From NCBI GenBank assembly GCA_040755995.1, contig JBFMAF010000049.1, forward strand, positions 96,001-160,000: 64,000 nucleotides of DNA. The letters run 5' to 3'. This document shows, piece by piece, positions 1 through 25,350 of this stretch. The notes under the pieces were generated by a model, which worked only from the letters and a program-made list of their open reading frames with translations, did no database searches and was not told where the DNA came from. This stretch comes from Acidobacteriota bacterium. GTDB lineage: Bacteria > Acidobacteriota > CAIWXX01. The stretch's first letter is position 1, and each line of letters begins with the position of its first letter. The position numbers and the translations under genes are program-made.

Positions 1-758
1 CGCGAGGCCGCAAACAGCGCCGACGCGATGGAGCCTTCTATTCGAGCCTCCGCCACAGCCTGACCGGTGATCGCGCCGATGAACGATTTCCGGCTCGTCC
101 CGACCGCGATGGGCCGCCCCAGTGACAGCAGCGACCCCAGGTTATGCAGGAGCCGCACGTTATCCGCGAAACCTTTCCCGAAGCCGATCCCGGGGTCTAT
201 GACCAGGCTCGTCGTTTCGCTTCCCGCGGCGACGGCCGCCGCGATGCGAGCCCGCAGGAACTCGGTGACCTCGGCCACCACGTCGCCGTAATGCGGGTTG
301 AGCTGCATGGTCTTAGGACTGCCCTGCATGTGCATCAAGACCAGGCCGGCCCCAGTCGAAGCTGCCAGCGGAAGCATCGCAGGTTCGCCCAACCCCGCCG
401 TGACGTCGTTTACGATGGACGCTCCACTCCGGATTGCTTGCTGCGCCACGACCGCCCTGGACGTATCGATCGAGAGAGGGATTTTCAGCCGCCCGGCAAG
501 CTTGTCTATCACCGGAAGCACGCGAGAGAGCTCTTCTTCCGCGCTCACGTGATCGCTCCCCGGACGCGTGCTCTCGCCGCCGATGTCGACGACGTCCGCC
601 CCCTCCTCCTCCATCTGCAGCGCGCGCTCGACTGCGGCCTCCGCTTCCAGATACCGGCCCCCGTCTGAGAAGGAATCGGGGGTGACGTTGAGGACGCCCA
701 TGATGCGCGGGCCTCCTGCGCCCAGGTCCCACGCGCCGCCTCGGAACAGGAAGTGCAT
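1..758 (-). CDS. folP: Dihydropteroate synthase (3' end runs off the window)
   Basis: Manual minus-strand translation from ATG 758: IMGVLNVTPDSFSDGG...DPGIGFGK...GTSRKSFIG; follows ftsH. Confidence 0.93.
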   Translation of the reverse strand, partial: MHFLFRGGAWDLGAGGPRIMGVLNVTPDSFSDGGRYLEAEAAVERALQMEEEGADVVDIGGESTRPGSDHVSAEEELSRVLPVIDKLAGRLKIPLSIDTSRAVVAQQAIRSGASIVNDVTAGLGEPAMLPLAASTGAGLVLMHMQGSPKTMQLNPHYGDVVAEVTEFLRARIAAAVAAGSETTSLVIDPGIGFGKGFADNVRLLHNLGSLLSLGRPIAVGTSRKSFIGAITGQAVAEARIEGSIASALFAAS

Positions 759-21313: not shown

Positions 21314-21429
21314 GGTTCTCCCCAAAGCTCCAGAAGCTACCATAGGCGCCGATAGCGGTCAAGGTTCGGCAGCAGGCGTTTCTCCGATTCCCCCCTTTCA
21401 CCACAGGACATTCCAATCCGCCCACCGCC

Positions 21430-22176
21430 TCACATATAGAGGCCGCCGGAGACGTTCAGGACGTTGCCGGTGATATAGGATGCGTAGTCGCTGGCCAGAA
21501 ACGCGGCGGCGTGGGCGATGTCCTCGGCCTCGCCCAGCCGCCTCAACGCGATCGCCTCCTTCAGCTTCTCGATCTGATCGCCCTGCAGTTTCTCCGTCAT
21601 GGCGGTCCGGATGAATCCCGGAGCGATTGCGTTGACAGTGACATTGCGCGAGCCCAGCTCTCGAGCAAGCGATTTCACAAAGCCTATGATCGCGGCCTTG
21701 CTGGCCGCGTAGTTGGTCTGCCCGGGATTGCCCATCATTCCCACGACCGAGGATATGGCGATGATCCGCCCGTATCGCTCCTTCATCATCCCCTTAATCA
21801 GCTCCTTGGTCAGGTAGTAGACAGGGTGGAGATTCACCTTGAGCACCAGGTCCCATTCGATGTCCGACATGCGCATCAGGAGGTTGTCCTTGGTGATGCC
21901 GGCGTTGTGGATCAGGATCTGGCACGGGCCGCTCTGCTCGATGCTCTTGGCGACGGCCGCGAGTGTCTCATCACGATTGGTCAGGTCTACCGCCAGGCTC
22001 TCGACGGCTGCCCCTTTCTCACGAAGAGCAGCCACCGTCTGCCGCAGCGCCTCCTCTTCCTTGTCCAGAAGCAGCAGCTTGCAGTTGGCGCCGGCCAGGT
22101 CGCCGGCAATGGCAGCCCCGATGCCCCTGGCCCCGCCCGTGATCAGCGCACGCTTTCCGGTGAAATCGAGTCTCAT
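21430..22176 (-). CDS. fabG: 3-oxoacyl-ACP reductase
   Basis: TGGARGIG, NAGITKD, GNPGQTNYAASK, APGFI; AAGGAGG RBS. Confidence 0.95.
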   Translation of the reverse strand: MRLDFTGKRALITGGARGIGAAIAGDLAGANCKLLLLDKEEEALRQTVAALREKGAAVESLAVDLTNRDETLAAVAKSIEQSGPCQILIHNAGITKDNLLMRMSDIEWDLVLKVNLHPVYYLTKELIKGMMKERYGRIIAISSVVGMMGNPGQTNYAASKAAIIGFVKSLARELGSRNVTVNAIAPGFIRTAMTEKLQGDQIEKLKEAIALRRLGEAEDIAHAAAFLASDYASYITGNVLNVSGGLYM

Positions 22177-22438
22177 CGTCTCCTCCTTAGGGTTCTCAGC
22201 TTCCGAGCCTGCGATTCTCACACAGATCGCACGCAGACACAATGAAGGCCTCATTGCTCATGCCGTTAGGGACTACGCATCCAAGAGATGCGGCGGTGCT
22301 TTCAGGAGGCGAAACGGCGAAACGGAGAATCGGAGAGAGGGAGAAAGGGGAAGCGGTGAGGGGGTCGCGGTGGGTCTCCGTGTCACCGCGTCCGCAGCCG
22401 TGAGCAGGCGCTGTTGCTGGCAACCACAGAGTCGCTAG

Positions 22439-22486
22439 AAAAAGTGAACCGCCAGAGGTCACCGCGCGTTCGACCCCTGGCGGTTC
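22439..22486 (-). terminator. Intrinsic terminator
   Basis: GAACCGCCAG...CTGGCGGTTC 10-bp perfect stem followed by ACTTTTT. Confidence 0.8.
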
Positions 22487-22710
22487 GGCCAACCCGTTGC
22501 TTTGATGGTGTCTGCGCTCTATCTGTGCCCGACGGCCTCATTTCCGAGTGCCCGCGGTTATCGCTACAGCGGCGCCTGCCCATCAGTCCGATTGATGTCG
22601 GACTCTGTCACAACCCGTTCCCTCGCAGCTCCTAGGCACTGCTCCGGAACGTCTTTCAAGCGGCCAGATTCGCTTTTGCTCTCTAGCTACTCTCCTTTGG
22701 TTAGGCCTCT
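22439..22710 (-). ncRNA. Unassigned structured RNA (~270 nt including terminator)
   Basis: Own promoter, nested complementary stems, closing helix, intrinsic terminator, no credible ORF. Confidence 0.7.
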
Positions 22711-22716
22711 GCGTAG

Positions 22717-22745
22717 AATATAGACAGCGCATCGGCACTTGTCAA
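22717..22745 (-). promoter_or_regulatory. sigma70 promoter of the ncRNA
   Basis: TTGACA-17-TATATT. Confidence 0.8.
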
Positions 22746-22758
22746 GGTCGTTCTGTGA

Positions 22759-22825
22759 AAATACAGCGCCTCACACATCGCGTCGACTTGTTGAAACTGT
22801 TGCGGACTCATGACGCCCTGTATAG
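22759..22825 (+). mobile_element. 67-bp miniature inverted-repeat element, copy B
   Basis: ATACAGCGCCTCA...TGACGCCCTGTAT; 53/65 identical to copy C by hand count. Confidence 0.8.
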
Positions 22826-22834
22826 ACTCGTGAA

Positions 22835-23641
22835 ATGCGGCGCGCGGTCGAACACGCGGAAACAGCCCGGCCAGGCCGGGCGCTCCTGGGCAAGGCATGC
22901 CTGGTCACCGGCGCAGGCCGTGACCTGAGCGCTGCCATCGCTGACGGGCTGGCCCGTGAGGGGGCGCTCCTGGGAATTCACTACAACCGTAGTAAAGCCG
23001 GCGCCATGCGCCTCCAGCGGCAGATCATCCGGCGAGGCGGCATCGCTCACGTGGTGCAAGCAGACCTTCGCGACGAGACCGCCGTCCGGCGCATGGTTCG
23101 GCAGGCGCACCGCCTGCTCGGAAGGATCGACATTCTCGTGAACAGCGCCGGCCTGTTCTATCGATCCGACCTGTTCGATACTCCGATGCGCTCGCTGGAC
23201 CTGCTCTTCGACCTGAATCTGAAGGCGGCGCTGATTTGCGCGCGCGAGTGTGCCGCGGTCATGACGAGACAGGGGAGCGGCTGCATAGTCAACATCTCGT
23301 CGCTCGGCGCCTTCGAGGCGTGGCCGGGCTACCTGGGCTACTGCGCTTCGAAGGCGGCCCTTGTCTCCGCGACGCGAACGATGGCACTCCAGCTCGCTCC
23401 TGCCATCACCGTCAATTCAGTCGCACCGGGGTTCATCGATCTCCCGTCGGAGCTGAGCCTCGCTGCCAGGCGTCGCATTATCGCCAAGATCCCGGCCGCA
23501 CGCCTCGGGAGCTATGACGACGTCGTGGGGGCCGTGCTGTACCTGTGCCGGTCCCCGTACGTCACCGGACAGGTGCTGCTCGTTGACGGCGGCGCGTCGA
23601 TCAGGCACCAGGCGCCAGGAATAAGCGACCGGTACCGGTAA
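22835..23641 (+). CDS. SDR oxidoreductase, pteridine reductase/FolM-like
   Basis: LVTGAG, IHYNRS, NSAG, YCASK, VTGQVLLVDGG. Confidence 0.85.
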   Translation: MRRAVEHAETARPGRALLGKACLVTGAGRDLSAAIADGLAREGALLGIHYNRSKAGAMRLQRQIIRRGGIAHVVQADLRDETAVRRMVRQAHRLLGRIDILVNSAGLFYRSDLFDTPMRSLDLLFDLNLKAALICARECAAVMTRQGSGCIVNISSLGAFEAWPGYLGYCASKAALVSATRTMALQLAPAITVNSVAPGFIDLPSELSLAARRRIIAKIPAARLGSYDDVVGAVLYLCRSPYVTGQVLLVDGGASIRHQAPGISDRYR

Positions 23642-23676
23642 CAGTCTCCGTCTCGCCGGCCGGCGCCTCCACGCGG

Positions 23677-25350
23677 CTACTTGATGATCGTCACCGAGCT
23701 CTCCGGCGACAGGTCAGAAAGGTTTTGAACGCTGTCGTAGCATCGGAGGCGGAAGTAGTATGTCGTGTCGTACTGGAGGTCGGTGACCCAGTAGGCGGTC
23801 TTGTTCCCGAGATCGACGGTGCGATCATAGACGTTGGGTCTGGTCCCGTACTGGAGTATGTAGCCGGCACGATCGGATTCGGCGTTGGGCGGCCACGTCA
23901 GCTTCGCCTTCTTCTTGGTTCCGACCTGCTCGCTCGAGAGACTCTCGGGCGCCCTGGGAGCCAGTGTCTTTATGAGCCCCCACCACTTCTGGCCCATCAG
24001 TTGAAATCCGCGGGCGTTAGGGTGGACCTTGTCCGTCATCAAGGTGTATGCGTAGTTCGGATCCGCGATGAATGCGTTGTAGATGTCCACGTAGCCGAGG
24101 CGATCGTCGATGATCAGCTTGCGGATCAGCTCGTTGGTCGCGCGCGTGTGATATCCGGTAGGATCGAAGTCGTCGTCGCGGCCGCGAGGCAGGAGTGTCG
24201 AGAGTAGAGCCGTCGTCCCTGCTCCAACGCACTTCTGGGTCATCGCGCGCAGGTTGTCGCGCGTGGTTGCGGGCGTAATGGCGGAATGCCTCGTCACGTC
24301 ATTCGTCCCTTCCATCAGCAAGACGTACGCCGGGCGAATCGAGCTCAGCACGCCAGGCAGTCGCGCCAGCCCCTCCGCGGTGATCTCGCCGCCGAACCCC
24401 TCGTTGAAGACCTGCGTCGGGCCGTACCCCTGCGAAAGCAGATCGATGAGAGTGGGGTAGTAACCCACGCGAGTGCTCTGGCTGTGGTCTTCAGGAGTGT
24501 TTCCCTCGGTGATCGAATCGCCGAATCCGCAGAAGCTGTTCACAGCGGCGGCGGCCGCCGGTCGAGTCCGGGGCGGCTCCGCAACTGGCTCGACGATCGT
24601 TCCATCGGCCAGCAGGGGCGTTTCCATCGCGCGCCTGCCTGTGCCGTCGTTGTGAACCCAGCAAAGCAGCCGGCCGCCGGACTCATCCTGCCGGATGCTC
24701 GGGAGGATGTCGGCCGCGCCGGAGTCATGCGTGACCGCCCTCTCGGGCGCGAAGCGCGGAGGCGATCCGGCAAGCCCCGTCACGGCGTAGATCTCGTAGT
24801 CCTCTCCGTCATAGCCGGAGTAGGCAACTAGAATCCGGCCTTCCGAGACCGAGATGGCCGGCATCGTGCGAGGCTCGTTGATACCGGCCGGTGAGAGCAG
24901 AACGGGGCGGCTCCAGGCGCCGGCTTCTCTACATATGTAGTAAACACGCTCGTGGCCGTCCTCGACCGCCGTGATCGCCATGTGCAGGGCCCCTCCCGAT
25001 TCGGTCGCGCTCAAGCCGCCGATCGAGTCGAATGCCGCGACGTCGTGGAAGGCGGGCCGGGCGCTCACGTCGGATATGTCCGCCTCCTCGATCGCCTCGC
25101 CGCCGGCGCGGCGGATCTTGAAGAGGGCGGTCGAGCCCGCGAGCACGACGTAGTCCGCTCCCGGGCGATCCCAGAGCGCCCTGAGGCCGTTGGGGGTCTG
25201 CCTCAACAGGGAGACTCCTCGTTCGGTCTCGGCCAGCACATAGGCGCCGCCGCGCAAAGGGATCGCGTTTTGGATCTCGGACCGCTCGTCATTCGGCGCG
25301 GCGCCGAGCAGCGCCGGAGCCAGCCACAGACAGAGGGACCACCTGAGCAT
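23677..25350 (-). CDS. Secreted SGNH/GDSL hydrolase with C-terminal fibronectin type III domain
   Basis: FGDSITEG, EGTND, DKVHP; FN3-like C-terminus. Confidence 0.85.
   Translation of the reverse strand: MLRWSLCLWLAPALLGAAPNDERSEIQNAIPLRGGAYVLAETERGVSLLRQTPNGLRALWDRPGADYVVLAGSTALFKIRRAGGEAIEEADISDVSARPAFHDVAAFDSIGGLSATESGGALHMAITAVEDGHERVYYICREAGAWSRPVLLSPAGINEPRTMPAISVSEGRILVAYSGYDGEDYEIYAVTGLAGSPPRFAPERAVTHDSGAADILPSIRQDESGGRLLCWVHNDGTGRRAMETPLLADGTIVEPVAEPPRTRPAAAAAVNSFCGFGDSITEGNTPEDHSQSTRVGYYPTLIDLLSQGYGPTQVFNEGFGGEITAEGLARLPGVLSSIRPAYVLLMEGTNDVTRHSAITPATTRDNLRAMTQKCVGAGTTALLSTLLPRGRDDDFDPTGYHTRATNELIRKLIIDDRLGYVDIYNAFIADPNYAYTLMTDKVHPNARGFQLMGQKWWGLIKTLAPRAPESLSSEQVGTKKKAKLTWPPNAESDRAGYILQYGTRPNVYDRTVDLGNKTAYWVTDLQYDTTYYFRLRCYDSVQNLSDLSPESSVTIIK

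Follow-up and report, generated by a model that had tools for sequence, protein, structure and literature searches.

The described RNAs that come closest to the locus presented here are the raiA motif RNA (RF03072; ModT), RosA and OLE RNA. The raiA motif is described as having 51 conserved positions, a conserved closing helix P1, the linker UUAGA(C/A)GUAA and a pair of pseudoknots (PMC12968392, PMC10861870), and it is described mainly from Bacillota and Actinomycetota (PMC10861870). RosA of Bacillus subtilis is reported to be an RNA of ~229 nt that is transcribed from a sigma-A promoter, ends in a terminator and pairs with C-rich sRNAs through its G-rich regions (PMC8216469). OLE RNA is reported to bind bS21 at a mimic of the Shine-Dalgarno (SD)/anti-SD pairing (PMC12054373).

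Here, we are discussing an element on the minus strand of the window, i.e., the whole stretch of 64,000 nucleotides of acidobacterial DNA that was analysed. We regard it as a real free-standing non-coding RNA gene, with a probability of roughly 0.9, whose product quite probably acts in trans. Sequence and comparison establish a predicted promoter and terminator, the lack of a conserved open reading frame (ORF), a predicted three-domain fold, conservation in three of three genomes, and a changing downstream gene. In the best reading, the element represents an uncatalogued, lineage-restricted RNA family, found so far in one small family of uncultured Acidobacteria. No description of this RNA was found in the literature listings searched.

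Transcription unit and predicted fold

A first, sequence-only reading of the locus had proposed the promoter TTGACA-17-TATATT (22745-22717, minus strand), and this was borne out. Its −35 (22740..22745) and −10 (22717..22722) hexamers together match the consensus at 11/12 positions, both are identical in all three family genomes, and the promoter was the sole site found in a scan of 21500-23500, where shuffled sequences let one expect 0.3. The spacing to the −10 hexamer predicts a start site at ~22710; the predicted transcripts of all three copies start with AGA. The non-coding RNA of ~270 nt (22439..22710, minus strand), assigned on the basis of folding z-scores and RNA-library contigs, ends in an intrinsic terminator (22439..22486, minus strand). 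The terminator with its U-tract had been recognised before, but its stem (22486-22446, −30.9 kcal/mol) comprises 15 bp, not 10, and is followed by U5 at 22443-22439; it escaped the automated terminator scan because its loop is longer than 8. The homologous RNAs are ~280 and ~295 nt long and end in terminators with 11-bp and 9-bp stems and U-rich tails. The earlier statement that the locus holds no credible ORF was confirmed, none being conserved among the three homologues. One peculiarity is that the end of the promoter spacer, directly upstream of the −10 hexamer (22728-22721), forms an inverted repeat with 22685-22678 in the motif region (minus strand), with 7/8 pairs here, 8/8 in G001 including one compensatory change, and only 3/8 in G002; this may be chance, or it could reflect feedback by the RNA on the promoter from which it is transcribed.

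The postulated highly structured body of ~270 nt is reflected in the folding energies: the stretch 22715-22439 has a minimum free energy (MFE) of −121 kcal/mol (z −4.71; 0/200 shuffles as good), and the body without the terminator reaches a z of −3.5 (0/100 shuffles as good). At the 5′ end, a domain of ~55 nt (22658..22710, minus strand) combines a purine-rich internal loop with a GCU/AGC stem, its detailed fold varying between copies. It contains the conserved SD-like motif CAAAGGAGAG(U/G)AGCUAG (22683..22699, minus strand), 16 of whose 17 positions are identical in all three copies. Next comes the variable hairpin H2 (22616..22651, minus strand), which occupies an equal position in the three copies with unrelated sequence. 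The three-way-junction domain (22496..22614, minus strand) is made up of P3, an A-rich linker, P4 and P5. It is closed by P3 (22614-22610 with 22500-22496), for which an equivalent long-range stem of differing sequence is predicted in each homologue. P4 (22585..22604, minus strand) is a near-invariant hairpin, AGUCCGA-6 nt-U(C/U)GGACU, with 7/7 pairs in 3/3 copies and a single change from G-C to G-U among them. P5 (22504..22584, minus strand) is a long irregular arm with an invariant GAUG/CAUC base that is conserved in the homologues and with AGGC and GC-A(C/G) conserved around an internal loop, while its distal part is variable. In the modelled junction, P4 would stack on the GAUG/CAUC helix.

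Most of the helices named in the sequence-only reading recur in the predicted ensemble (CGUUCC/GGAACG, GCAG/CUGC, AGUCCGA/UCGGACU, GUUG/CAAC and GAUGG/CCAUC, with mean pair probabilities of 0.79-1.00). For the proposed AAGCG/CGCUU hairpin, however, the words are present but the ensemble favours GAGU/GCUU together with GCUAGA/UCUGGC (P 0.93 and 1.00). These preferred helices bury the loop AUCUG of a suggested AUCUG/CAGAU pseudoknot, and the CAG of its partner is taken by a stem; indeed, both pseudoknots suggested at the time lose to stronger helices, and neither is conserved in the homologues. When unpaired stretches were screened, no pseudoknot, PK1 and PK2 of the raiA type included, turned up in all three copies; the screen depends on the MFE folds and requires at least 5 pairs, and a 2-bp PK2 would be invisible to it. 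The proposed closing helix GGCC-AACC/GGUU-GGCC is predicted in this copy (P 0.92-0.98), but has no equal in the homologues, which fold their 5′ end locally instead of forming a 5′-3′ closing helix (best duplex −12.2 kcal/mol here vs −7.1 and −3.7 kcal/mol there).

Homologues, RNA-library contigs and gene neighbourhood

A DNA search of 61 genomes recovered the element, with one match per genome, in both other family genomes, G001 and G002, which together with the present genome (G000) represent three different genera. Both keep the promoter hexamers letter for letter, the 5′ motif, situated ~12 nt after the predicted start, P4, followed by GAUG(A/G)GC and later by CCAUC, and the terminator. In pairwise alignments among the genomes, the RNA reaches z-scores of 8.1-16.7, compared to −0.6 to 0.1 for the downstream spacer. 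The homologues fold with z-scores of −5.3 and −4.9 (vs −4.7 for this copy), and without terminators the three copies reach −3.5, −3.4 and −4.5. Single-sequence folds yield the same plan in all three copies, in which H2, P3 and the distal P5 return at corresponding positions with sequences that are unrelated. These folds served to pair up equivalent helices manually, because the model R2, built from the G000 junction domain alone, recognised G001 weakly (19.9 bits, with the distal part out of alignment) and did not detect G002. RNAalifold on a MAFFT alignment of the three sequences recovered H2, P4 and the terminator, but its covariation term was unfavourable (+3.44); formal covariation is weak, there being just three full sequences. 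Conserved across the three genera are the SD-like 5′ motif and P4, which is predicted to stack on GAUG/CAUC. Two modules are under selection, namely the motif and a junction with base pairs that are invariant in sequence.

No further homologue was encountered in ~390 other Acidobacteriota genomes, phage and plasmid records and JGI metagenomes; three genomes flagged as unpublished (G025, G048, G151) enter the negative tallies only. The P4 pattern matched seven times in 401 genomes of the phylum, comprising the three true copies and four sites without motif A or promoter. Among its 13 matches in the genome contigs collection, 11 were judged by eye to be chance, and the two true ones (L080, L087) are the same sequences as the known homologues and were not recounted. 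The combined pattern of motif A and P4 had 0 matches in metagenome contigs, the full element was present in none of the 51 and 6 matched loci of viral contigs, and blastn of phages and plasmids at E<=1 found nothing. With model R1, representing the 5′ half with 7 pairs, 8 matched in 151 genomes at E<=0.01, i.e., the three true copies and five weak matches (19-22 bits, no intact P4), three of which are AAAGGAG/AAGGAG of ribosome-binding-site type; at E<=0.001, there were 0 matches in 240 further genomes, G391-G400 being outside this search. The adjacent SDR gene was used for a synteny search, in which the best metagenome relatives were <=41% identical and the best score outside the family was 220 bits vs ~460 bits within it; R1 found nothing in 100 SDR loci (73/80 metagenome, 27/27 non-family genome). 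The homologue searches are blind to relatives with a changed P4 sequence. One chance match of the P4 pattern, in G157 (L015, ~1500-1560), is accompanied by CUGAUGAG with GAAAC 10 nt later, which we take to resemble a hammerhead core; the site shows no clear stem II and no Rfam match at the gathering score.

Two metatranscriptomes from two studies each hold one contig that lies wholly inside the RNA. The 188-nt contig X1 covers 22500-22686 with 4 substitutions and 1 insertion (97% identical), and the 192-nt contig X2 covers 22455-22623 with 29 substitutions (26 of them listed) and 23 loose letters toward H2; neither reaches the promoter nor runs past the terminator. From the flanks within 21400-23700, short pieces only were seen (36-64 nt among those listed, mostly <90% alike), and the short SDR and fabG pieces probably come from other organisms; missing close-match RNA cover on fabG and SDR is no evidence about their expression. 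The metatranscriptomes were picked by shared words with 22300-22900, and their contigs carry no strand, ends or level and could derive from DNA. Transcription as a discrete RNA is suggested by these contigs, as a hint, not proof. Together, the two syntenic homologues and the two RNA-library contigs support the initial claim of a new large non-coding RNA with its own promoter and terminator.

The changes in X2 are distributed unevenly. As many as 24 of the 26 listed changes fall within 22519-22571, giving 24 changes in the 53 positions of the distal arm vs 2 in the 55 positions of the core (p 2e-7), and the same pattern is seen between genera. P4 is changed at a loop base only, and in P3 a U-G pair becomes U-A. 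Eleven reference pairs are touched: three are doubly changed yet paired (22566/22526, 22555/22531 and 22551/22535), two are kept by one change, and six are broken, five of which are, by our reading of the change table, replaced by a shifted register. Both partners change together above expectation (6/10 pairs, p ~0.04 at the local rate). However, given the broken pairs and the equal substitution rates at paired (17/73) and unpaired (9/35) positions, the support of X2 for the distal fold is modest.

All three RNA copies are arranged head-to-head with the same SDR gene (59-62% identical); here, this divergent gene occupies 22835..23641 (plus strand). Its closest NCBIfam models, PRK09134 and pteridine reductase, are both below cut-off, and it has a promoter-like site of its own in each genome (~22800-22828 in the window). 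The downstream side differs between the genomes. In the present one alone, the RNA is followed by fabG (21430..22176, minus strand; TIGR01830 over cut-off), which probably starts at the ATG at 22176, preceded by AAGGAGGAG, instead of at the beginning of the ORF (22254). It heads what is presumably the series fabG-yceD-rpmF-plsX-fabH-acpP-fabF, the names besides fabG being our assignments from the translations. In G002, yceD-rpmF-plsX lies directly downstream of the RNA, with no fabG ortholog at that place. In G001, a convergent 161-aa ORF (L168, 11810-12295, plus strand) is situated behind the RNA and before a trp/aro-like operon, and no yceD, rpmF or plsX is present within the 14 kb examined. 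Between terminator and next gene, there are promoter-like sites (8/12 for yceD in G002; 7/12, weak, for fabG here). The changing downstream gene and these intervening sites argue for an independent gene and against an attenuator; the earlier suggestion of an attenuator of fabG does not hold, the linkage to fabG not being kept across the three genomes.

Some further features of the neighbourhoods deserve mention. The spacer between the terminator and fabG contains a long C/U-rich stretch (22355-22305, minus strand) which could pair with the purine motif of the RNA; the G001 and G002 spacers do not resemble it. A short Trp-rich reading frame ending AWRWYSSTRWAVS in G001 (L003, ~99-200, minus strand), ahead of a trpE-like gene, is possibly a trp leader peptide with an attenuator. 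In G002 (L169, 12978-13453, minus strand), the proline dehydrogenase ortholog matches in two pieces, with an ORF of 191 aa vs 282 aa here, and may be broken or misassembled.

Candidate mechanisms and rival explanations

In the mechanism which we tentatively prefer, a single-copy, free-standing RNA, initiated at a near-consensus sigma-70 promoter and ended by an intrinsic terminator, would act in trans, its 5′ motif being a copy of an SD sequence without a start codon that serves as a pairing decoy. The SD-like motif would be complementary to the 16S 3′ tail as generally known from bacteria; this tail was not found in the assembly. The decoy role is proposed because the SD-like sequence has no start codon: AUG, GUG and UUG are absent 3-15 nt behind it in 3/3 copies, and UAG stands 4 nt behind it in all three. 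The decoy would bind C/U-rich partners, which might be small RNAs that block ribosome-binding sites, in the manner of a RosA-like sponge, or anti-SD stretches of mRNA leaders, while the invariant P4/GAUG-CAUC junction could bind a protein or confer stability, and Hfq could be loaded at the terminator U-tail. Two features of Hfq-dependent sRNAs, an intrinsic terminator with a U-tail and a genomic Hfq, are present, Hfq being over cut-off in 3/3 genomes. A second, weak Hfq-like match below cut-off was seen in two of the three (G000:C13:36134-36283, G001:C267:17511-17660).

Against the decoy stand the facts that no partner was found and that the motif is partly paired in every predicted fold, differently in each, whereas a seed should be open. 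Among 24 CAAAGGAGAG/CTCTCCTTTG sites in G001 and G002 and 16 in G000, the RNA locus is the only orthologous context shared, and a search with exact 10-mer seeds revealed no conserved partner site shared by the three genomes. A start codon follows the 10-mer at 9/40 sites vs 455/3000 random places, leaving use as a ribosome-binding site unsupported.

A close rival, possible and nearly as likely, is a protein-binding or structural ribonucleoprotein scaffold of the raiA/OLE kind, which would fold around the P3/P4/P5 junction and bind a protein, the purine-rich 5′ motif being a structural loop (tandem G-A or loop-E) or a ribosomal-protein site instead of a pairing seed. It is favoured by the fact that P4 and GAUG/CAUC have retained their sequence, not just their pairing, in three genera, and the invariant base pairs of P4 are more suggestive of recognition by a protein or through tertiary contacts than of base-pairing. 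The sparing of the core over the distal arm in X2, the single copy per genome, and the placement of the G002 motif in a purine loop (5x5) adjoining an AGGA/UCCU helix fit a scaffold as well, for which the reported binding of bS21 by OLE RNA offers a precedent (PMC12054373). However, a conserved pseudoknot or closing helix is lacking, conservation is far lower and the range far narrower than for raiA, and the SD/anti-SD helix differs among the three copies. Furthermore, CsrA and Ro60 (TROVE) had 0 matches in G000 (99.84% complete); CsrB/RsmZ and a bacterial Y RNA were dismissed as candidates on account of these missing cognate proteins.

Improbable, in our view, is a cis-acting leader, attenuator or riboswitch controlling fabG or the yceD-rpmF-plsX operon. 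The operon does lie downstream on the same strand in 2/3 genomes and the terminator directly follows the structured domain, but G001 keeps the whole element before a convergent ORF, promoter-like sites intervene before the next gene, and the three copies all lack a match to riboswitch or leader families. Riboswitch, T-box and leader are disfavoured, there being no constant co-oriented downstream gene (fabG, yceD, convergent ORF).

It is just as hard to credit that there is no functional RNA at all, and that the locus consists of a strong promoter beside the SDR promoter, DNA sites such as a 7-6-7 palindromic operator, and a terminator limiting stray transcription. P4 is indeed a DNA palindrome, and the few full sequences with their weak covariation leave room for such a reading; yet, the sole change in P4 breaks the palindrome while keeping a G-U pair, helices recur at equal places with unrelated sequence, and X2 shows three compensatory and two compatible changes along with the joint change of partners.

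Another long shot is a ribosome decoy, in which the start-less SD would pair with the 16S anti-SD tail and park or tune the 30S, with the P4/P5 junction docking on the ribosome or a ribosomal protein. The position of the RNA ahead of yceD-rpmF in 2/3 genomes and the OLE-bS21 case would fit this.

The resemblance to raiA noted in the sequence-only reading is already largely refuted, also in the form of a highly divergent member. Size, single copy and free-standing nature are similar, as a single-copy independent gene with one match per genome and its own promoter and terminator is present here, and the three short words UUGAAAG, GUAGCGA and UCAAAG occur in this copy. These words, however, are not kept in place, UUGAAAG being changed even in X1. 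A search of G000 with RF03072 gave 0 matches at E<=10, and scanning the individual copies gave none either. The raiA linker is missing at <=3 mismatches from 3/3 copies, a closing stem of the P1 type is predicted in G000 only, and no pseudoknot is common to the copies; moreover, raiA is described from Bacillota and Actinomycetota (PMC10861870).

A structured mRNA encoding a small peptide, e.g., a type I toxin, could account for the SD-like motif, the promoter and terminator, and an AUG within the conserved CUGAUG, but is highly implausible with no start codon at the proper distance from the motif in any copy and with the conserved AUG running into a stop after two codons in G001 and into unrelated frames in the other two, i.e., no shared peptide.

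Relation to known RNAs

The Rfam scan that had been proposed to challenge the novelty of the RNA found no match at the gathering score and, at E<=10, only three eukaryotic, viral or ribozyme chance matches far below cut-off; no family matches any of the three copies. The initial failure to match the element to tmRNA, RNase P, SRP, 6S, T-box or a riboswitch agrees with this result. tmRNA, RNase P RNA, 6S RNA and SRP RNA are each present as a full over-cut-off copy on another G000 contig, with none here; the element is, thus, not a disguised housekeeping RNA. Likenesses to the hammerhead (CUGAUGA), glycine, THF, yybP-ykoY and T-box RNAs were dropped for lack of an Rfam match. To us, the 5′ motif recalls the purine-rich AGUA/GAA loop-E strand of the yybP-ykoY riboswitch and the T-box specifier loop; however, no Rfam match exists at E<=10 in the three copies, G001 and G002 read AGGA, and there is no conserved downstream gene.

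The element adds an uncatalogued structured RNA family to a phylum on whose small RNAs the literature searched says little. Its promoter and ends are defined, there is an initial indication of expression, and each of its two conserved modules is amenable to mutational analysis. Its reach is narrow, comprising uncultured bacteria represented by three genomes and two contigs from RNA libraries. Should the SD-like motif capture ribosomes or anti-SD small RNAs, the RNA would clearly exemplify a ribosome-binding-site decoy that lacks a start codon.

Of the three systems introduced above, RosA is similar in size, housekeeping-sigma promoter, terminator and purine-rich motifs, and serves as a model of how the RNA might work only. 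RosA has three G-runs, whereas this RNA has one A/G-rich motif and a conserved junction core which the available text on RosA does not report (PMC8216469); no sequence relation is implied, and no partner sRNA is known here. With OLE, the element shares a structured nature, an unknown core function and an SD/anti-SD mimic (PMC12054373), but OLE is an RNA of ~600 nt from Bacillota, while this RNA is without an Rfam match and no single conserved helix contains its SD-like motif. With raiA, the element shares a size of 200-270 nt, a structured, free-standing nature as a single-copy gene, a promoter and terminator of its own, a changing context and an unknown function (PMC10861870, PMC12968392). 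raiA, however, spans ~2,700 species, whereas this RNA is known from three genomes of another phylum and is far less conserved; it does not belong to raiA, although it is a comparable kind of object.
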